Shown: piece after piece, positions 17,781 to 64,000 of the stretch | Numbering within the stretch: the first letter of the stretch is position 1 | Layout: every line of letters starts with the position of its first letter | Source: Verrucomicrobiia bacterium | GTDB taxonomy: Bacteria > Verrucomicrobiota > Verrucomicrobiia > Limisphaerales > UBA11358 | Reading direction: 5' to 3' | Assembly: GCA_035546095.1 (NCBI GenBank) | Contig: DASZXB010000017.1 | Location: 24-64,023 of the forward strand | Length of the DNA: 64,000 nucleotides | Translations under genes and position numbers: made by a program | Notes under the pieces: generated by a model | The model's database searches: none | Told to the model about the DNA's origin: nothing | The model's input: only the letters and a program-made list of their open reading frames with translations

Positions 17781-19889
17781 ATGGAAAACGCTACTATCTC
17801 CGCAAAGAGCCGTGTGCGCAGCGGAGCTTATCCGGACTGGAGCAGTTCCAGTGATTTCGACGAAAATTTCAAAGCTTCCAATGGAGCGCAAATCACATAT
17901 TTGTTGATCGACAATCAGGTTCACGCGGAACGACATGAGTTGTTTGTTCGTCAGGTTATCCGGCTGGAAACAATGGAGGCAGTCCAACATTGGTCGCAAT
18001 GGAAACTACAATTTGAACCCAAACAACAGTTAATCACGCTTCATTCTCTGAAAATCAGGCGCGGCCAGAATGAAATTGAGCAATCCAATTTGGAGAAGGC
18101 GCATTTTTTACAGCGCGAGGAAGGATTGGAGCGTTTCGTCATCCATGGATGGTTCACGTTATTGATGATTTTGGAAGATGTGCGCCCTGGTGATGTTTTG
18201 GATTTTGCCTATACGATTGAGAGCTCATCCGAATTATTTCCAAATCAAGGCGGGAGTTTCTTTATTCTGCCGCAAGGCATGTCGGTTGGCAAATACCGCT
18301 TTGCCGTTCAATTTGCGGATGCACGGCAAAGAAAGTGGAGATCTTCTGCCAACTTGTTACCCACTGAAAGACATGAAAACGGCATGACTTTTTGGGAATG
18401 GTCCGGTGAAAAATTTGTCGCGCCGAAACTCGAAGCGAATACTCCGTCATGGCATATCAGTTATCCTTGGATTCAAGTCTCGGATTTTGCCGACTGGCAG
18501 ACGATTGCGGCAGGAATTTCCAAAATATGGATCGCAGAAACCGATGACTCGACGATTGCAGAACTTGTAAAAGAGATAGAAAACCTAGGACCCGGTTTGC
18601 CACGCCGCATTGAGCGCGCCATCCAATTGGTTCAAGATGAATGTCGTTACTTAAGCGTCAATTTGGAACTCGGCGGCCAAATTCCGACTTCGCCGGGCAC
18701 AGTTGCCCGCCGACGCTATGGCGATTGCAAAGACCTTTCCTTCCTGCTGGTAACCCTGTTGAAAAAGCTGGGCATCCGCGCTCGACCTGTGCTCGTGAAT
18801 ACATTTCTACGCAAATCAGTTCGTAATTTCATGCCCATGCCGTCACTGTTCAACCACGTCGTCGTGGAATTTGAAGTGGATGGTAAACAGCGTTGGATTG
18901 ATACTACTTTCAAACAACAGGGCGGCGGCGCTTTCAATCGTTTTATTCCCGATTATGGTTGCGGTCTGCCTGTGGATGCATCGGCAACTGGCTTGGTTGA
19001 ATCACCAAAACTGGAAATTTCCAACCTGTATGATTTGCATAAGCATGTTTTGCTCGACACAAAAAATGGTTCTTCTTTGATGGCTGTCACCTTGCACGTC
19101 GAAGGCAATCAAGCCGACCTGCACCGCATTCAATTCAAAAAATTTGGATTGGAAGAGTGGAGCAAACAACGGTTGGAATCCATGATAAACCGTTATCGTA
19201 GTGCCAAGCGCGTCGGGGAACTCAAATGCCAAGATGACCGTGACACAAATGTTTTTGTCCTCACCGAAGTTTTTGAGATTGAATTCAAACTAGGCAAACA
19301 CGCCAATCCCAAGCTGCGCGCTTTTCATCTGCCCGGTAGTTGGCTTAACACCATCCTGCCGATGCCGCCTAAAGGTGAACGCCACAATCCGTTTCTACTA
19401 CCGTATCCTTGTGCCATCAATTACGTCGTGGATGTGGACAATCGCGGCATCAACCGTTTGCGATTAAGCCAGCCTCGCACTGACATCAGCACCGATTTTG
19501 CCATTGTCAGCCGCACCGATAGAGTTGGCTTTGGCCATTTTACTATGCGCCTCGCCCTGCAAACGAAGGCCGCCGCCGTGACTCCAGAATTGATTGAAGA
19601 ACACATGGACTTTGTAGAAAAAATGGCAAATACTTGCAACCGTGTTTTAAATCTTGCGCCCGGTTATTCACGTCCAATTTCGCCATCAGGTTTTGGTGAA
19701 TTGCCCACAATTATCAAACCTAAACCACCATTTACCCCGGAAAGCAAAAAGCCCGCCGAAGCCATTTCTCCCGTCATTCGCAAATATAGTTTCATAGACA
19801 AAATCCGTCGGCATTGGAGAATCTTCTGGATTGTTCTCGTTGTGCTTTTTTGGGTAATCGGTTCGATGCTAAAAGGTTGTTCACATTGA
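17781..19889 (+). CDS. DUF3857 + transglutaminase-like cysteine protease domain protein with C-terminal TM anchor
   Basis: RRRYGDCKDLSFLLVTLLKKLGIRARPVLV is the transglutaminase-like catalytic Cys motif. The N-terminal region resembles DUF3857, and the C-terminus has a hydrophobic helix (WRIFWIVLVVLFWVIGSML). Confidence 0.7.
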   Translation: MENATISAKSRVRSGAYPDWSSSSDFDENFKASNGAQITYLLIDNQVHAERHELFVRQVIRLETMEAVQHWSQWKLQFEPKQQLITLHSLKIRRGQNEIEQSNLEKAHFLQREEGLERFVIHGWFTLLMILEDVRPGDVLDFAYTIESSSELFPNQGGSFFILPQGMSVGKYRFAVQFADARQRKWRSSANLLPTERHENGMTFWEWSGEKFVAPKLEANTPSWHISYPWIQVSDFADWQTIAAGISKIWIAETDDSTIAELVKEIENLGPGLPRRIERAIQLVQDECRYLSVNLELGGQIPTSPGTVARRRYGDCKDLSFLLVTLLKKLGIRARPVLVNTFLRKSVRNFMPMPSLFNHVVVEFEVDGKQRWIDTTFKQQGGGAFNRFIPDYGCGLPVDASATGLVESPKLEISNLYDLHKHVLLDTKNGSSLMAVTLHVEGNQADLHRIQFKKFGLEEWSKQRLESMINRYRSAKRVGELKCQDDRDTNVFVLTEVFEIEFKLGKHANPKLRAFHLPGSWLNTILPMPPKGERHNPFLLPYPCAINYVVDVDNRGINRLRLSQPRTDISTDFAIVSRTDRVGFGHFTMRLALQTKAAAVTPELIEEHMDFVEKMANTCNRVLNLAPGYSRPISPSGFGELPTIIKPKPPFTPESKKPAEAISPVIRKYSFIDKIRRHWRIFWIVLVVLFWVIGSMLKGCSH

Positions 19890-57375: not shown

Positions 57376-60300
57376 ATGAAAAACACAATCGCTTTCATGG
57401 TGAAATTGGTTGTTTCAATGATTCTGTGGAGCTTCACTGCATTTTCTCAAACAGCATCCTATGGTGTGGTTTCTACATCCTCGCTTCCTCCGCAATTTGT
57501 GTATGCCGTGGCCGAGCGCGGTCCAAATTATTGTATTTGGTCCACAACCAATCATGAAACAGATGCCAAGGGCCAAGGTGTGCCTGTCGTGCATAAATAT
57601 ACTGAACTAGCCACAGGCTTAAATCATTTAGTCAATGGCCAATGGATTCCCAGCAGTGAGGAGATTGATATTTTGCCCGACGGAACAGCGGCGGCGACCA
57701 ATGGACAACATCAGGTGTATTTTCCAGCAGATATTTACGATGGAGAAATCCGAATGGTGACGCCTGACGGTAAAACATTACAAAGCCAGCCGTTGGGATT
57801 AAGTTATGACGATGGCAGCAACACAGTGTTGATTGCCATATTGACCAATTCGATTGGTGAATTGATTTCTTCCAATCAGGTGATTTATCCCAATGCGTTT
57901 GCGGGTATGGACGCGGATTTACGTTACACCTACACGAAGGCGGGATTCGAGCAGGACATCATCTTGCGGGAACAGCCGCCGACGCCGCAATCGTTTGGTC
58001 TGAACCCTGACGCGACACGATTGGAAGTGTTGACGGAGTTCTTCAATCCACCCCGGCCAACAGTCAAGGCAACTGCTGTTTCGACCGCCGCAGGCAATCT
58101 TGAGGATGACAATTTGAGTTTTGGGACGATGCGGATGCGGCGGGGGAAGGCGTTTCTGTTGGGAACGAACACCCCTTCTGCCAGTGTCAACAAACAATGG
58201 CTTACGTTGGACAACAGACAGTTCCTAGTGGAAGAAGTGCCGGTCGTTTCCATCGTCAATGAACTGTCACAATTGCCGCAGAGCGCATCCACTCAATCCA
58301 ATCCTCCATTGAATGTGATTTCGAGCACGAGATTATTGCCGCAACAACGTCTGGCCAAAACCAAAGGCAAAAAGACATTCATTGCAAAGGCTTCGCTGCC
58401 GGACAATGGATTGGTGTTGGATTACAACACGATTAATAGCAGTTTAACGAATTACACATTTCGGGGCGACACAACATATTATATTAGTGGAAATATTTAT
58501 CTATATGGAACCAATATCTTTGAGGGCGGGACGGTGATAAAATACAACGGCACCTCGATTACTCTTGACTATCCATCCTCTATCCAAACACAGACTTCTG
58601 CTTATCGCCCTGTGATATTTACGAGCGGCTCGGATTCCAGCGTGGGTGAAATCACGCCGGGCGGATATAGCGGCGGACACCCGGCGCTGGCGTATTATGG
58701 AACAGTAACATATGCTGAAAGCGGTTCGCTAAAGTTAAACAATTTCCGGATTTACCGCGCCGATGAAGCGATTTATGTCAGCGGCAATCTCAATGCCACT
58801 CTCGAGAATGGTCAGTTTTGTGATTGTGTAATCGGGTTTGAAGCGGATGGATTCAACGTATACGCACAAATTGAAAATTGCCTGTTTCAAGAGCCCGGCT
58901 CGATGGCCCTGTGCCTGAATCAGGCAAACGTAACGATGGAAAATGTCACGGTGGATGGCAATGGCGATACCTCTTTATCACAGGCCGTGCCCTATAGCGA
59001 TGCTCCATATACTATTATGATGACCAATTGTTTAATCGGCAACGTTTGGACACTTTCATGGGGATCGTCTGACGCCATAATCGGAGGCGATTACAATGGA
59101 TTTTATGACACCGACGTTTCGCCTTTTGGCGTTCATTACATAGATTTTCCCGATAATGGCCCGTATCAAACCGCAGGCGCCGGCAATTATTATTTGGGGG
59201 ACAATTCATTCCGCTATTTTGTTGGCACGACAGCTATTGACCCAGCATTGCTGGCCTCCCTACGGACGAAGACCGTTTATCCCCCCGACACAAACTCGTA
59301 TATCAACACAATCATTTCGACGCCAACTACCATTACTCCTTCGCCTCAAGTTCTTTTTGATGAACCTAATGCTATCGCCCTTGGCTATCATTATGACCGC
59401 ATTGATTACCTTGTTGATAATCTGACTGTTTCCAACACGGTTTTAAGTTTGGCGAATGGCGTTGTGTTGGCCAGTTGTAATGACATCGGTATCCAGGTTC
59501 AAGGAAGTGGAACCATTGTTTCAACCGGAACGCCGGCACTGCCAAATTGGCTTGTCCGGTATCAATCTGTGCAGGAGGAACCCATACTTTTGGGAGGCGC
59601 CGACCCTTCACTGGGCGCAACAATTTGCGCGACAAACACCGGGGCGTCCGGCTCATTTCAATTCACGCATTTTTCAGTTCCCGCCGGCGGCGGCTATGAT
59701 TTTTACGACACCGGCAATTCAGTATTCAGCAACCTTGTGCTGCAAGAATGCGAGCTTTACGGCGGAGCAAATGATTTCAGCGGAGGAAGCTCCGCCAGCA
59801 GCGTAATTCTACAGAACAACCTCTTTGATTGTTCGTCCATCTACGCCTCCAACACTTCCGCCTCGGCAAGTCTTGCCATCTCCAACAACCTTTTTTGGGG
59901 GACAACCGCAACCATTCACCAGCCGGCCGATGGGGTTTGGTATGCTTACAACAATGACTTTGATTCAACTGCCATTACAAATTCAACTTTGAACAATGGT
60001 TACAATGCCTATCTGAATTGCAGCGGTTATTTGTCTTCCACGAATGCCACCGACATTTTTTCTGATGACTCATTGGCCTATGTCGCCGGGCCTTTGGGCG
60101 ATTTTTACCAGCCGGACGACAGCCCGCTCATCAATGCCGGCAGCACAACGGCGAACCATGTGGGTTTATGCGCTTATACTGTTCTGACTGATACGGTTAA
60201 CGGAATGGAGATTGAGGAAACGAATTCCATTGTGGATATTGGTTACCACCATGTCGCCGCCACTCCTGATGACAATTTAGTGGTCAGCACCAACATCACG

Positions 60301-60969
60301 CCGTTGCAAATGGCGCAGATGTTGATGGGAACAGGTGTTACAATTGCTAATGCGACTTACACGGGAACAAATGCGGCTCGCGGCATATTTGCAGGAGGCT
60401 TTGCTTGCAACCTCCCAATAGATAGCGGCGTAATCTTCGATTCAGGCAACATTGCTGATGTCATAGGCCCGCCAAGTATCACAAACCCGGATGGCGAATT
60501 TGGAAATCTAGGTGGTGACACAGATTTAGATAATCTGATTGGTATTGATAGTTCGGATGGATGGGATCCTGCGGTGTTGGAATTCGACATTATTTCATCC
60601 ACGAATTCAATTTCATTTCAATACTTCTTCACGTCTGAAGAATACACCCAATATGTTGGTTCCGTATACAATGATGTCTGTGGAATTTTTATTGATGGAA
60701 CAAATATAGCCGTTGTTCCGGGCACCTCGCAGTGTGTGTGTCTAAATAATGTTAGTCCTGATACTAATGCCAAATACTATGTGAATAATCCTTTCGGAGC
60801 AAACATTGTCAATATGCAATATACCGGTTTAACAACCTTGTTCACGGCGCAGGTGACTATTTCTACGAACGTGGTTCATCATATCAAAATTGCTATCGAA
60901 GATGTTGGCGACGATGCCAACGATTCAGCTATCTTTCTGAAAGCAGCGTCATCGTGTAACTGCAATTAA
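57376..60969 (+). CDS. large secreted protein with beta-helix-like repeats and C-terminal choice-of-anchor-L-type domain, no C-terminal sorting signal
   Basis: Signal peptide from ATG 57376 and NNLF-type beta-helix repeats. The C-terminus FQYFFTSEEYTQYVGSVYNDVCGIFIDGTNIAVVPG...YTGLTTLFTAQV...HHIKIAIEDVGDDANDSAIFLKA matches the choice-of-anchor-L pattern as I remember it. The protein ends 8 residues later (ASSCNCN). Confidence 0.75.
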   Translation: MKNTIAFMVKLVVSMILWSFTAFSQTASYGVVSTSSLPPQFVYAVAERGPNYCIWSTTNHETDAKGQGVPVVHKYTELATGLNHLVNGQWIPSSEEIDILPDGTAAATNGQHQVYFPADIYDGEIRMVTPDGKTLQSQPLGLSYDDGSNTVLIAILTNSIGELISSNQVIYPNAFAGMDADLRYTYTKAGFEQDIILREQPPTPQSFGLNPDATRLEVLTEFFNPPRPTVKATAVSTAAGNLEDDNLSFGTMRMRRGKAFLLGTNTPSASVNKQWLTLDNRQFLVEEVPVVSIVNELSQLPQSASTQSNPPLNVISSTRLLPQQRLAKTKGKKTFIAKASLPDNGLVLDYNTINSSLTNYTFRGDTTYYISGNIYLYGTNIFEGGTVIKYNGTSITLDYPSSIQTQTSAYRPVIFTSGSDSSVGEITPGGYSGGHPALAYYGTVTYAESGSLKLNNFRIYRADEAIYVSGNLNATLENGQFCDCVIGFEADGFNVYAQIENCLFQEPGSMALCLNQANVTMENVTVDGNGDTSLSQAVPYSDAPYTIMMTNCLIGNVWTLSWGSSDAIIGGDYNGFYDTDVSPFGVHYIDFPDNGPYQTAGAGNYYLGDNSFRYFVGTTAIDPALLASLRTKTVYPPDTNSYINTIISTPTTITPSPQVLFDEPNAIALGYHYDRIDYLVDNLTVSNTVLSLANGVVLASCNDIGIQVQGSGTIVSTGTPALPNWLVRYQSVQEEPILLGGADPSLGATICATNTGASGSFQFTHFSVPAGGGYDFYDTGNSVFSNLVLQECELYGGANDFSGGSSASSVILQNNLFDCSSIYASNTSASASLAISNNLFWGTTATIHQPADGVWYAYNNDFDSTAITNSTLNNGYNAYLNCSGYLSSTNATDIFSDDSLAYVAGPLGDFYQPDDSPLINAGSTTANHVGLCAYTVLTDTVNGMEIEETNSIVDIGYHHVAATPDDNLVVSTNITPLQMAQMLMGTGVTIANATYTGTNAARGIFAGGFACNLPIDSGVIFDSGNIADVIGPPSITNPDGEFGNLGGDTDLDNLIGIDSSDGWDPAVLEFDIISSTNSISFQYFFTSEEYTQYVGSVYNDVCGIFIDGTNIAVVPGTSQCVCLNNVSPDTNAKYYVNNPFGANIVNMQYTGLTTLFTAQVTISTNVVHHIKIAIEDVGDDANDSAIFLKAASSCNCN

Positions 60970-60988
60970 AATTTAACATGGAAATCAT

Positions 60989-61663
60989 ATGAAAAAGATA
61001 AACCTTGTTCTTCTACTGGCAGGATTACTGTGCCCTATATTTATGCAAGCGCAAGGCACGCTGTATTTGTCAAATTCCGGTGTAACTCCAATGGGCAGTG
61101 CGGAAATCGGAAGCGATTCATGGATTGGTCAGTCGTTTTATACCGGGACCAATCCAGATGGTTATACGTTAGATTCCATTCAATTACTCATGAATTCGGC
61201 TATTGGGAATCCCGACAACGTTACGGTTTCCATTTATTCGTGGACGTCCGGGACCGGAGCGCCGGGAACCGAAATCGCTTCTTTGACCGGATTCAATCCT
61301 TCAACCGGAGGCCTTTATACTTATACAGCTTCAGGAATCACACTGTTACCTTCAACTGATGGGGCCGAACAGTCTTATTTTGTCGTGGTTACCGCCTCCA
61401 CACCCGTTGCAGTAGGCGCTTATGACTGGAGCGCAGCTAACACTGAACAACAGCAACTCTCGGAATTTATTCAGAACGATGGATGGCTCTTCCATGATGA
61501 ATATTTTAGCTCAACTGATGGTTCAACATGGACCAAGACGATCAGGCAAGATATTTTTCAAATGGCGATTTATGCCACGCCAATTCCTGAACCTCAAATA
61601 TATGCCGTGTTAGGGTTGAGTTTAGCTTATATTGGCTTCCGGCGTTTCCGGCGAAGCAAATGA
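60989..61663 (+). CDS. PEP-CTERM sorting-domain protein, paralog 1
   Basis: Signal peptide, then a C-terminal PIPEPQIYAVLGLSLAYIGFRRFRRSK (PEP motif, TM helix and Arg cluster). Confidence 0.85.
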   Translation: MKKINLVLLLAGLLCPIFMQAQGTLYLSNSGVTPMGSAEIGSDSWIGQSFYTGTNPDGYTLDSIQLLMNSAIGNPDNVTVSIYSWTSGTGAPGTEIASLTGFNPSTGGLYTYTASGITLLPSTDGAEQSYFVVVTASTPVAVGAYDWSAANTEQQQLSEFIQNDGWLFHDEYFSSTDGSTWTKTIRQDIFQMAIYATPIPEPQIYAVLGLSLAYIGFRRFRRSK

Positions 61664-61740
61664 ATTATCGTATGCAATACAATGGCATGACTGTGTTACT
61701 CACCGCTCAGGCATTCATTTCCGCCAACGTCACCAATCAT
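61574..61740 (+). repeat. 167-nt direct repeat R1 (PEP-CTERM anchor coding end plus start of relic)
   Basis: By manual alignment it differs from R3 at 8 positions, and from R2 at 2 positions plus one 9-nt indel. Confidence 0.85.
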
Positions 61741-61824
61741 GTAAAAATCGCCATCGCTGATTATAGCGATAATGAATTAGATTCGGCAGTCCTCATTAAA
61801 GCCCAATCATCCTCATGCCCTTAA
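61660..61824 (+). pseudogene. relic of the last ~52 codons of a choice-of-anchor-L gene (intact 54-codon ORF)
   Basis: MNYRMQYNGMTVLLTAQAFISANVTNHVKIAIADYSDNELDSAVLIKAQSSSCP is homologous to the C-terminus of the 57376-60969 product. Its ATG overlaps the paralog-1 stop (ATGA). Confidence 0.6.
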
Positions 61825-61837
61825 AGAAAGGAATATT

Positions 61838-62497
61838 ATGAAAAAAAAATTAGTCATTATGCTGGTTGCATTGCTTGCATTAATAAGCGCGCAAGCGCAA
61901 GGCGTGATTTATTTATCGAATTTAGATGAACCTGCCAATGGCAGCGTAGCCGTTACTGTGAGTCCAGGAATTTTTGCGCCTTTCACCACGGGAGCGAATC
62001 CCGAAGGATACCTTCTTGATTCAGTTCAACTATTGATGGATGATTCTGAAAGTTCTGTTGGATTTAGCATTGGAATATTCGGAATCAGCTCTGATCCGGT
62101 GCCGACCCCTGGGGCGGAATTAGGCGCTCTCAATGGCTCTTCTAATCCATCAACTGCAGGCATTTATATATATACCACTTCCGGCATCACCTTATTGCCT
62201 GACACTGTCTACTTCATTGGTGCCCGCACCAGAGGGACATTTTACTGGAGTCTGGCAAACAGCGCAAGTTACACTTCGAATGACAACTGGGATTATCCCC
62301 TCCTTATAGAGGGGTTCCCATCATATGGTTTTTATTATGATGGTGATGGTGTCACTCCTATTCCATATCCGCTTCAATTTGCCATCAGCGCCACGCCAAT
62401 TCCTGAACCTCAAATATATGCCTTGTTAGGGTTGAGTTTAGCTTATATTGGCTTCCGGCGTTTCCGGCGAAGTATCGTATTCAATACAATGGCATGA
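61838..62497 (+). CDS. PEP-CTERM sorting-domain protein, paralog 2 (C-terminus altered by 9-nt deletion)
   Basis: Signal peptide and C-terminal PIPEPQIYALLGLSLAYIGFRRFRRS. A 9-nt deletion removed the normal stop, so translation continues IVFNTMA into the relic. Confidence 0.8.
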   Translation: MKKKLVIMLVALLALISAQAQGVIYLSNLDEPANGSVAVTVSPGIFAPFTTGANPEGYLLDSVQLLMDDSESSVGFSIGIFGISSDPVPTPGAELGALNGSSNPSTAGIYIYTTSGITLLPDTVYFIGARTRGTFYWSLANSASYTSNDNWDYPLLIEGFPSYGFYYDGDGVTPIPYPLQFAISATPIPEPQIYALLGLSLAYIGFRRFRRSIVFNTMA

Positions 62498-62547
62498 CTG
62501 TGTTACTCACCGCTCAGGCATTCATTTCCGCCAACGTCACCAATCAT
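62390..62547 (+). repeat. 158-nt direct repeat R2
   Basis: Same block as R1 and R3 but lacking 9 nt (caaatgaat). Its start lies 816 nt after the R1 start. Confidence 0.85.
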
Positions 62548-62637
62548 ATTAAAATTGCTATTGCTGATTATAGTGATGACGAATTGGATTCTGCTATTTT
62601 TATTAAAGCGGCTTCATCATGTAATTGCAACCAATAA
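62473..62637 (+). pseudogene. relic of a choice-of-anchor-L C-terminus, copy 2
   Basis: The frame reads YRIQYNGMTVLLTAQAFISANVTNHIKIAIADYSDDELDSAIFIKAASSCNCNQ. That is 35 of 52 residues identical to the C-terminus of the large protein. Its stop overlaps a possible ATG of paralog 3 (TAATG). Confidence 0.6.
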
Positions 62638-62645
62638 TGAATCCT

Positions 62646-63296
62646 ATGAAAAACCTAATAATCATAATAATCGTCCTAATGAGGCCATTATTTCTGCACG
62701 CACAAGGAATCCTCGAGGTGTCAAACCTCGGCAAAAGCCCCACCAACAGCATGGCCATCGGGAATGATTCATGGATTGCGCAAGCATTTTATGTTGAGGG
62801 AGGTGGCGCGGACACGAATATCTATAATCTGAATTCCGTTCAACTGCTTTTGGATGCCGCGTCAGGAAGTCCCAGCAACCTTACAGTTTCAATTTACACC
62901 GAGCCTTTTGGTGGCGGTCCTCCTCAAACAAATCTTGGCGCTCTGACTCTAAATAGTTCCATGGATCCGATAGCTGGCGGCATTGTGACCTACAACGCTT
63001 CCGGTATCACAATTGTGCCGGGCAACGCTTATTTCGTTGTAGCGACAGCCGCGACTTCTATCGCACAGGGCGCGTATCAGTGGAGCTCTTCCACAAAAGA
63101 AACCGACAATGGAACCTGGGTCATTGACGACGTATATTATAATTCATCTGATGGCTCAAGTTGGACAAAAACAATTCGTCAGGATGTTTTTCAAATGGCG
63201 ATTTATGCCACGCCAATTCCTGAACCTCAAATATATGCCTTGTTAGGGTTAAGTTTAGCTTATGTTGGCTTCCGGCGTTTCCGGCGAAGCAAATGA
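62646..63296 (+). CDS. PEP-CTERM sorting-domain protein, paralog 3
   Basis: Signal peptide (MKNLIIIIIVLMRPLFLHAQG) and C-terminal PIPEPQIYALLGLSLAYVGFRRFRRSK. Alternative starts are at 62625 and 62637. Confidence 0.8.
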   Translation: MKNLIIIIIVLMRPLFLHAQGILEVSNLGKSPTNSMAIGNDSWIAQAFYVEGGGADTNIYNLNSVQLLLDAASGSPSNLTVSIYTEPFGGGPPQTNLGALTLNSSMDPIAGGIVTYNASGITIVPGNAYFVVATAATSIAQGAYQWSSSTKETDNGTWVIDDVYYNSSDGSSWTKTIRQDVFQMAIYATPIPEPQIYALLGLSLAYVGFRRFRRSK

Positions 63297-63373
63297 ATTA
63301 TCGTATTCAATACAATGGCATGACTGTGTTACTCACGGCCCAAGCATTTATTTCCGCCAACGTCACCAATCAT
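63207..63373 (+). repeat. 167-nt direct repeat R3
   Basis: Same block as R1. Its start lies 817 nt after the R2 start. Confidence 0.85.
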
Positions 63374-63443
63374 GTCAAAATTGCTATTACCGATTGTGCC
63401 AGTTATGAGATGACGAATTGGGTTCCGCTATTTTTATTAAAGC
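63293..63443 (+). pseudogene. relic of a choice-of-anchor-L C-terminus, copy 3 (frameshifted)
   Basis: MNYRIQYNGMTVLLTAQAFISANVTNHVKIAIT... then loses the frame. It has 8 extra nucleotides relative to copy 2 around 63390-63420. Confidence 0.6.
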
Positions 63444-63461
63444 ACAATTTCCCATTTGCCC

Positions 63462-64000
63462 TTACTTCGCGCCCGTGCCAACAAATACGGCGGGGACGGT
63501 TTTCAGCAAGATTTTCAAATCGAGCCAGAGCGACCAGTGGTCAATGTATTCGAGGTCGAGCCGCACCCAATCTTTGAAATCCTTGATTTGATTGCGTCCG
63601 CTGATTTGCCAGAGGCAGGTGAGGCCGGGTTTGACGCTCAAGCGGCGGCGGTGGGCGAGGTCGTTGAAGCGTTTGACTTCATAAACCGGCAACGGACGCG
63701 GGCCGACGAGGCTCATCTCGCCGCGCAAAACGTTGAACAGTTGCGGTAATTCATCGAGGCTGTATTTGCGGAGAAATTTTCCAACGCGCGTGACGCGCGG
63801 ATCATTCGTCACTTTAAAGACCGGGCCATGCATTTCATTCATGGCTTCGAGTTCATGTTGGGATTGCGCGGCGTTGGTCGTCATGGTGCGGAATTTGTAG
63901 AGCGTGAACGGCGCGCCATTGAGACCGGAGCGTTGTTGTTTGAAAAAAACCGGGCCGGGCGACGTGATTTTGATGGCGAGCGCAATCAACGGAAACAGCC
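63462..64000 (-). CDS. exopolysaccharide polyprenyl-phosphate glycosyl-phosphotransferase (bacterial sugar transferase family), partial
   Basis: [13 protein letters not shown]...YKFRTM and [21 protein letters not shown] motifs. The N-terminus lies beyond the window end. Confidence 0.85.

Follow-up and report, generated by a model that had tools for sequence, protein, structure and literature searches.

Choice-of-anchor-L tail fragments conserved as short open reading frames between tandem PEP-CTERM genes of a Verrucomicrobiia bacterium

A 64,000-nucleotide (nt) stretch of DNA from a Verrucomicrobiia bacterium (Limisphaerales; GenBank assembly GCA_035546095.1, contig DASZXB010000017.1), called the window here, carries near its end a gene for a large secreted protein with a choice-of-anchor-L (L) domain, followed by three tandem genes for choice-of-anchor-R (R) proteins that bear PEP-CTERM sorting signals. 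Behind each of the three PEP-CTERM genes lies, in turn, a copy of the 3′ end of the L gene (its last ~50 codons), as a first-pass annotation of the sequence had described, and two of these tail copies form short open reading frames (ORFs; mini-ORFs hereafter) that are under purifying selection at the level of the encoded peptide. The members of the array, numbered from the first nucleotide of the window, are the following.

57376-60969, + strand: choice-of-anchor-L gene encoding the large secreted protein (1197 aa from its ATG, from the ORF list)
60811-60969, + strand: genuine L tail, the last 52 codons and the stop of the large gene
60989-61663, + strand: PEP1, choice-of-anchor-R/PEP-CTERM gene (NF041539, E 3.5e-21, 75.8 bits)
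61660-61824, + strand: copy 1, mini-ORF 1, 54 aa (NF038133 positions 169-218, E 8e-13, 48.3 bits)
61838-62497, + strand: PEP2, choice-of-anchor-R/PEP-CTERM gene (NF041539, E 1.2e-14, 54.6 bits)
62473-62637, + strand: copy 2, mini-ORF 2 (NF038133 positions 171-218, E 2e-13, 50.1 bits)
62637-63296, + strand: PEP3, choice-of-anchor-R/PEP-CTERM gene (NF041539, E 1.1e-17, 64.4 bits)
63293-63460, + strand: copy 3, frameshifted, with the homologous stop lost

The product of the large gene starts with a signal-peptide-like N-terminus, has no anchor signal of its own and terminates in NMQYTGLTTLFTAQVTISTNVVHHIKIAIEDVGDDANDSAIFLKAASSCNCN. Its residues 978-1192 match positions 2-218/219 of the NCBIfam profile choice_anch_L (NF038133, PF26766; 219 profile positions, curated cut-off 27 bits) with an E-value of 1e-57 and 194.7 bits, and the complete L domain forms the extreme C-terminus of the protein, namely its last ~215 residues. 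A Pfam-A scan of the large gene gave no match, and a search of PDB sequences with the L domain returned nothing significant. In an AlphaFold2 (AF2) model (pLDDT 76, pTM 0.81) the domain folds as a beta sandwich, to which the genuine tail supplies the last four strands. All matches to this model in a Foldseek search (PA14, MAM and CBM-like) were weak, with TM-scores below 0.3, and the modelled domain is described here as a “lectin-like beta sandwich” with nothing finer drawn from these matches.

All three paralogs score above the curated cut-off of choice_anch_R (NF041539; 30 bits). PEP1 begins 19 nt past the stop of the large gene, and PEP3 starts at the ATG at 62637 or at that at 62646. The proteins begin with MKK and a hydrophobic stretch (signal peptide) and terminate in ...ATPIPEPQIYA[VL]LGLSLAY[IV]GFRRFRRS, so that the PEP motif, hydrophobic helix, basic cluster and N-terminal signal peptide of PEP-CTERM proteins are present in each. 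The PEP-CTERM profile itself (TIGR02595, PF07589; cut-off 16 bits) scores 17.0 bits for PEP2, 17.6 bits for PEP3 and, just short of the cut-off, 15.9 bits for PEP1. The R paralogs are the variable part of the array (39-54% aa identity; 44% between PEP1 and PEP2, 54% between PEP1 and PEP3), and every R gene has its own start and ribosome-binding site.

The homology of copies 1 and 2 to the L domain is far beyond chance because both exceed the 27-bit cut-off. Neither is a complete L domain: the mini-ORFs extend only over profile positions 169-218, which correspond to the last four strands of the AF2 model. In tblastn alignments the identity to the genuine tail is 68.6% for copy 2 (35/51 residues), in agreement with the 35 of 52 residues reported at first pass, and 56% for copy 1; the two mini-ORFs are 86% identical to each other in protein, and the DNA identity of the tail copies to the genuine tail is 66-74%. 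Copies 1 and 2 are open and copy 3 is frameshifted, again as first described. The frame of copy 3 is shifted by an 8-nt insertion near 63396-63408; its first 31 codons are intact, with differences from the other copies that fall almost all on third positions. No PEP-CTERM gene lies downstream, and copy 3 is the one real pseudogene of the array, with no R gene behind it.

The chaining of these ORFs to their neighbours by ATGA and TAATG overlaps was likewise recovered. The ATG of mini-ORF 1 overlaps the PEP1 stop (ATGA, 61660-61663), and its own stop lies 13 nt ahead of the PEP2 ATG, with AAGGAA in the gap. Copy 2 is homologous from 62473 onward; its first ATG, at 62494, opens a frame of 47 aa and shares an ATGA with the PEP2 stop (62494-62497), and the terminal TAA overlaps the PEP3 ATG (TAATG, 62635-62639). 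The ATG of copy 3 overlaps the PEP3 stop (ATGA, 63293-63296). The DNA repeat common to the three units comprises the last ~85-100 nt of the PEP-CTERM gene and the tail copy (83-97% identity); in the rest of the paralogs, PEP2 has no DNA match to the others, and PEP1 and PEP3 align back to ~61501. In unit 2, a deletion of 9 nt (CAAATGAAT) within 62465-62497 took both the PEP2 stop and the ATG of the mini-ORF, and PEP2 therefore reads into the tail copy for 8 further codons. Its new stop, the TGA at 62495-62497, lies in the tail copy and again forms an ATGA, here with the conserved Met of the tail; the same arrangement is found in two of the related loci described below (L001 and L006). Since the three units share one junction, repeated deletion of large-gene bodies, one of the origins suggested at first pass, is unlikely for the units of the window.

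The 75 nt of PEP-CTERM-coding sequence that precede the junction (61582-61656, 62398-62472 and 63215-63289) differ at only 1-3 positions among the units, and the adjacent first 93 nt of the mini-ORFs differ at 6-11. The N-terminal domains of the paralogs, unlike these near-identical 75 nt, are only 39-54% identical in protein, a pattern that points to local gene conversion. The sorting-signal segment as a whole looks like a case of concerted evolution within the genome, and locus L001 has the same pattern.

Relatives were sought by a protein search with copy 1, a profile scan of genomes and metagenomes, and look-ups of single hits, which together yielded 46 loci (denoted by L and a number). 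The loci that carry a taxon label are nearly all from Verrucomicrobiota, Verrucomicrobiia, Verrucomicrobiales or Limisphaerales; the exception is L007 (Candidatus Limnocylindrales). In about 20 loci an R/PEP-CTERM gene starts 13-41 nt after the stop of an L gene. The comparison of syntenic loci that had been proposed at first pass thus yields an L-then-R order that is a conserved synteny of the clade. Tail copies behind PEP-CTERM genes were found in the following arrangements.

L006: L gene-PEP-tail-PEP
L001: L gene-PEP-tail-truncated PEP-PEP-tail-PEP
L037: L gene-PEP-tail-PEP
L034 (Limisphaerales metagenome-assembled genome): PEP-tail-PEP, with a K*/MNY ATGA junction as in the window
L041/42: tail-PEP-tail-PEP, with a similar MNC junction
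L035/36 and L030: tail-PEP-tail, with the contig end next

In L041 the main gene is not in view because the contig begins inside a tail. The simple intermediate L006 and the other array sizes among these relatives support an origin by tandem duplication and unequal crossing-over, which had been one of the first-pass suggestions. At least four types of junction occur among the lineages: an ATGA overlap at an added MNY, a PEP stop inside the GGC-ATG-ACN of the tail, an in-frame stop followed by VPPMAAPAFNIQ, and spacers of ~45 nt or ~80 nt. Because the junctions vary by lineage, the arrangement arose repeatedly or the junction was reworked; the tree of the R proteins is star-like and does not separate old from lineage-specific duplications. 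The frame of the tail relative to the preceding R gene is -1 in the window, L001, L006 and L030, the same in L035, and +1 in L037. A programmed frameshift or readthrough that fuses the R gene to the tail was considered and rejected, since this frame relation differs among lineages.

A tail ORF and an R gene are also found together without a nearby L body.

L032: tail ORF before an R gene, adjoining a sigma-factor gene
L040: tail ORF before an R gene, 110-aa ORF
L044 (547-1448), L045 and L046: 84-aa ORF consisting of a signal-peptide-like N-terminus (MNKIVGRLTIGCVLAYCSTSNIHA) and the L tail, in three samples

The 84-aa ORF lies 14 nt ahead of a choice-of-anchor-R/PEP-CTERM gene, which is followed by a long (411+ aa) ORF, and, to judge by its sequence, may encode a form of the mini-protein that is exported. 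The stand-alone tail ORFs lie 10-41 nt upstream of the R gene. Among the remaining loci, the L gene of L027 (400-760) is apparently broken immediately before the tail, where the interrupting ORF resembles, by eye, the start of an IS-type transposase, and in L002 (8695-10222) frameshifts, perhaps introduced in assembly, split the L gene as well as both PEP-CTERM genes.

Selection on the tail copies was estimated with a purpose-written maximum-likelihood one-ratio codon model (F3x4 frequencies, neighbour-joining topology, all branch lengths optimised), which was compared with omega = 1 by a likelihood-ratio test (LRT).

Three window copies: omega 0.11, LRT 28.5, p 9e-8
Six same-junction copies (window, L034 and L041; three lineages): omega 0.10, LRT 104, p 2e-24
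All twelve mini-ORFs: omega 0.14, LRT 176.3, p 3e-40
Fourteen tails on intact L domains: omega 0.13

Pairwise Nei-Gojobori estimates of dN/dS (non-synonymous over synonymous divergence) among the mini-ORFs range from 0.05 to 0.15. The differences are concentrated at position 3 of the codons in the mini-ORF frame, with 6, 2 and 16 at codon positions 1, 2 and 3 between copies 1 and 2, and 8, 2 and 29 between copy 1 and L034. Similarly, the last 15 codons of copy 2 (DSAIF.KAASSCNCN) differ from the genuine tail at 7 codons synonymously and at 1 non-synonymously. Across the orthologous PEP1-mini-PEP2 stretch of the window and L034, synonymous sites are saturated (proportion of synonymous differences, pS, 0.70-0.81). 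There, mini-ORF 1 and its ortholog have a dN of 0.097 at a pS of 0.78 (81% aa identity), compared with 0.35 for the flanking PEP1 (56%) and 0.41 for PEP2 (52%), so that the mini-ORF has 3-4 times fewer amino-acid changes than the flanking genes. Thus, copies 1 and 2 are not decaying; purifying selection acts on the encoded peptide, as strongly as on intact L genes and more strongly than on the flanking R genes. An embedded ribosome-binding site or RNA structure was also sought in the tail, but synonymous codons vary freely at every position, and therefore no nucleotide-level element accounts for the conservation. An Rfam scan of 60500-64000 gave no match at E <= 1, and no minus-strand ORF of >= 30 aa was found over mini-ORF 1.

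These values bear on the possibility that the copies are a neutral fossil of tandem duplication, in which copies 1 and 2, being short and young, merely happen to be still open. The frameshift in copy 3, the 9-nt deletion at junction 2 and the shortness of the ORFs would all fit such a fossil. However, neutrality is rejected both in the window (p 9e-8) and across lineages (p 2e-24), and the orthologous mini-ORF is intact at saturated synonymous divergence. Furthermore, ten distinct mini-ORFs that lie behind an R gene are intact, and all of those with a visible 3′ side precede an R gene. The fossil is consequently scarcely credible for copies 1 and 2. The label of relic that the first-pass annotation gave to all three copies holds for copy 3 only, and the neutral decay it had allowed for (dN/dS about 1) is the opposite of what was found in copies 1 and 2 (omega 0.10-0.14).

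The main rival explanation is that the tail copies are non-functional and owe their intact appearance to repeated overwriting from functional L tails by gene conversion or homologous recombination, the donors being other L genes in the genome or strains with an L gene directly upstream of the same R gene. The near-identical PEP-CTERM-coding 75 nt and the identical 5′ halves of the two mini-ORFs of L001 make conversion visible. In addition, mini-ORF 2 ends as the genuine tail does (AASSCNCN), and the mini-ORF of L006 has its closest match in another genome, in the tail of the intact gene of L004. The mini-ORFs have no signature of their own, since their conservation pattern equals that of the intact tails (site-by-site Spearman correlation 0.69), and in the group formed by the window, L034 and L041 the first ~7 junction codons, which lie beyond the reach of conversion, are the most degenerate. 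On the other hand, in five genomes (window, L001, L006, L030 and L037) synonymous sites are saturated between the mini-ORFs and the L tail at the same locus, no other L gene lies within the 64-kb window, and the junction-proximal codons (FNIQYDG) are intact in L001, L006 and L035. The genuine tail of the window is itself the divergent one. It departs at many conserved positions from the clade consensus, FNIQYDGMTVLLTAQ..ISANVTNH[VI]KIAIADY.D..YDSAVF[IL]KAW..C, with, for example, NVVHH for NVTNH and EDV for ADY, and this divergence is old because the relative L038 has a tail of the same divergent type. The window mini-ORFs, unlike the genuine tail, have stayed near the consensus and did not follow it. 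Overwriting would need several unseen donors in each of many lineages, and we regard it as unlikely, although it deserves more weight than any other alternative.

A cysteine within the last 2-6 residues is present in 12/12 of the mini-ORFs examined, with variable neighbouring residues (window 61813-61818 and 62620-62628; also L001, L006, L030, L034, L035, L037, L041 and L044). Intact L domains have a conserved cysteine near the domain start (GNGCGLP), which may be the disulfide partner of the tail cysteine. In L001 (1170-1190) the L gene stops six codons early (KAW*PSQCP*), and both mini-ORFs of that locus retain the full ending.

The position of the mini-ORFs relative to R genes is as regular as their sequence. 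A start codon is present in every one of them, and every intact mini-ORF with a visible 3′ side has an R gene at most 41 nt away or overlapping, with one exception (L038/39, discussed below). By contrast, the two copies that have an R gene before but none after them, in L023 and copy 3 of the window, are both broken. The remnant in L023 (2507-2569) is a shorter one (ISANVTNHIKIAIA only) behind a PEP-CTERM gene. Its form suggests a secondary deletion by microhomology, in which an alternative-frame PEP-CTERM helix (ELLEAQ) resembles the LLTAQ of the tail. The spacer from the tail stop to the R start is the same for full L genes and mini-ORFs, and often has the form T(G/A)A-AGAAAGGAAT-N5-7-ATG; the stop therefore abuts the Shine-Dalgarno site.

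This geometry raises the possibility that translation alone matters, so that open mini-ORFs carry ribosomes over the gap between R genes, prevent polarity and reach the next start, the peptide itself having no role. The ATGA and TAATG overlaps and the stop-to-start gaps of 10-41 nt, with a Shine-Dalgarno site directly after the stop, agree with such a function, as does the fact that the sole copy with nothing downstream is broken. A scan of the array for promoters and terminators found no excess of sites over shuffled sequence and, on the + strand of the tail copies and spacers, no site at all, which is also what continuous translation of one transcript would lead one to expect. However, a requirement for translation selects solely against stops and frameshifts and leaves unexplained the omega of 0.10-0.14, the third-position excess and the domain-like site pattern. 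As the sole explanation it is very unlikely. Among the four possibilities raised by the first-pass annotation, that of translated coupling peptides nevertheless comes closest; the part of it that fails is coupling as a sufficient cause, since this does not account for the amino-acid conservation.

The explanation that we consider probable, if by no means secure, is that tandem duplication of the tail together with the R gene left behind mini-genes that are translated and whose usefulness is linked to the R gene behind them. The duplication unit is [L tail + spacer + R gene]. In this Verrucomicrobiota clade the anchorless L gene normally has an R/PEP-CTERM gene 13-41 nt past its stop. A duplicated segment that starts ~50 codons ahead of the L-gene stop and takes in the R gene would, by tandem duplication and unequal crossing-over, give rise to the array. 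Because such a unit begins in the L tail, each extra R gene would arrive with an L tail in front of it. The resulting mini-genes, of 46-62 aa, are probably translated by termination-reinitiation along one operon, as their overlaps and spacers suggest. The conserved module would then be an L tail, a short Shine-Dalgarno spacer and an R gene, in which the tail may be part of a full L protein, stand alone, or follow a signal-peptide-like N-terminus. The constant position before R genes suggests that the value of the mini-ORF is tied to the R gene that follows. The most likely mechanism, though no more than a guess, is that the L protein cooperates with the R protein through its tail peptide, which would be a partner in binding or assembly. 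We can go further only tentatively and regard the following as doubtful: that the L-tail mini-ORFs are a new class of bacterial domain-fragment microproteins, and that the L-then-R pair is a two-component exosortase surface display system with the mini-ORF product as its adaptor. If this were true, the last three or four strands of the L sandwich would be the element by which an anchorless L protein engages a PEP-CTERM-anchored R protein, and each extra R paralog would have a free copy of that element, exported where a signal peptide has been gained.

Several observations weigh against a mini-gene that serves the downstream R protein. The window mini-ORFs have no signal peptide, yet the L and R proteins are exported, which makes it difficult to see how they could take part in a direct extracellular partnership. 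The fragment consists of core strands of a beta sandwich and, modelled alone, gives only a low-confidence structure (mini-ORF 1: four strands, pLDDT 65, pTM 0.33); such a model is what would be expected of a fragment that needs a partner, and has no bearing on function either way. The pattern of constraint is identical in mini-ORFs and intact tails, as repeated overwriting would also produce; the view covers 64 kb of the genome, and donor L genes may lie elsewhere; and gene conversion is active in the array, which blurs any “divergence since the junction formed.” R-R pairs without an intervening tail occur in L012, L028 and L029, so that a mini-ORF is not obligatory. Finally, L038 (849-1163) and L039 (149-463) carry an intact tail ORF alone beside aroQ, with no R gene and no L body. 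This ORF encodes 104 aa, of which the last 65 codons are an L tail of the window type (84% DNA and 90% aa identity; relative to the window tail, 19 codons differ synonymously and 9 with a change of amino acid). The homology stops exactly at the stop codon, and the arrangement is present in two independent samples.

Two further genes of the window touch on this system. The array is bounded by a convergent gene:

63462-64000 (cut by the window end), - strand: EPS polyprenyl glycosylphosphotransferase (TIGR03025, E 2e-85)

Its presence is consistent with a PEP-CTERM/exosortase system. Elsewhere in the window, a 702-aa ORF at 17781-19889 is weakly similar to the R paralogs (tblastn E 0.003 to PEP3). 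This ORF has no NCBIfam match and may be a further surface protein of broadly this type.

Nearly all that is known about PEP-CTERM/exosortase sorting and the choice-of-anchor families comes from genome statistics. A conserved L-then-R pair accompanied by a ~50-residue fragment that selection maintains before additional R genes suggests that this part of the L domain is functionally linked to R, and offers a small, testable handle on such proteins. The array also bears on annotation, since what appears to be duplication debris is under purifying selection equal to that on its parent gene, and such ORFs are dropped or named as full domain proteins. For example, one 54-aa tail ORF (P0001) is named “choice-of-anchor L domain-containing protein” by the NCBI pipeline. 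Exact-sequence look-ups of PEP1 and mini-ORF 1 returned no record, and text searches on choice-of-anchor domains with PEP-CTERM and on PEP-CTERM/exosortase in Verrucomicrobia gave no description of tail ORFs. In evolutionary terms, the array bears on the origin of small proteins from fragments of larger ones.

Among known systems, the closest in anatomy are the orphan cdiA-CT/cdiI and rhs-CT/rhsI modules that lie downstream of contact-dependent growth inhibition (CDI) and Rhs genes (Poole et al., 2011; PMC3150448). There, as here, a gene for a large secreted protein and its partner are followed by a tandem series of units, each comprising a 3′ fragment without the 5′ part and a partner gene; this order is present in the window, L001, L006 and L037, and L041 shows the units only. 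The likeness suggests that the copies could be recombination handles, maintained by second-order selection, at which crossing-over between a copy and the tail swaps the R gene behind L or alters the C-terminus of L. Array size does vary among relatives, and the R genes are variable. However, selection for DNA homology would preserve third positions, which are saturated here, and a DNA identity of 66-74% to the genuine tail makes a poor recombination substrate. The fragments are conserved rather than polymorphic, and the R genes all have their own starts and ribosome-binding sites. Handles of this kind are accordingly highly improbable, and the cassette-type recombination substrates proposed at first pass are unlikely for the same reason, the copies being conserved rather than variable. 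Silent cassettes of the pilS type have a variable encoded segment, whereas mini-ORFs 1 and 2 are 86% identical and near the consensus.

The differences from the CDI and Rhs modules are substantial. In the present array the fragment is conserved and the partner variable; the fragment consists of strands of a lectin-like beta sandwich and is not a toxin, so that there is no toxin/immunity pair; the partners are PEP-CTERM proteins destined for export, whereas immunity proteins are cytoplasmic; and it is the amino-acid sequence that is conserved, third positions being free, so that the fragment does not act as a DNA homology handle. The likeness to PEP-CTERM/exosortase systems and the choice-of-anchor families of Haft is plain in the full L domain, the three R/PEP-CTERM paralogs and the adjoining EPS glycosylphosphotransferase. 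By contrast with those families, the L protein here is anchorless and is followed by an anchored R protein, and the mini-ORFs comprise only positions 169-218/219 of the profile.

The pseudogene relics of segmental duplications, in which a segment that starts inside an upstream gene leaves truncated 3′ copies, resemble the array in their origin, and copy 3 fits this description. Such relics are unlike copies 1 and 2 and the equivalent mini-ORFs of other genomes, which have an omega of ~0.1 and are intact at saturated synonymous divergence. MicroProteins are small, one-domain derivatives of larger proteins that act via domain contacts and are mainly eukaryotic. The mini-ORFs are similar in that a short homolog of a nearby larger protein is under purifying selection of its own, but they encode part of a domain and not a whole one. 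Coupled upstream ORFs and leader peptides share the ATGA and TAATG overlaps, the stop abutting a Shine-Dalgarno site and the association with a downstream gene. However, ~45 residues are conserved here, in a pattern that mirrors a folded domain, and the last 8-10 residues before the stop are the most variable part of the mini-ORFs, unlike those of known arrest peptides. Gene fragments in tandem arrays are thus known from other systems; here such fragments have probably been turned into conserved mini-genes.

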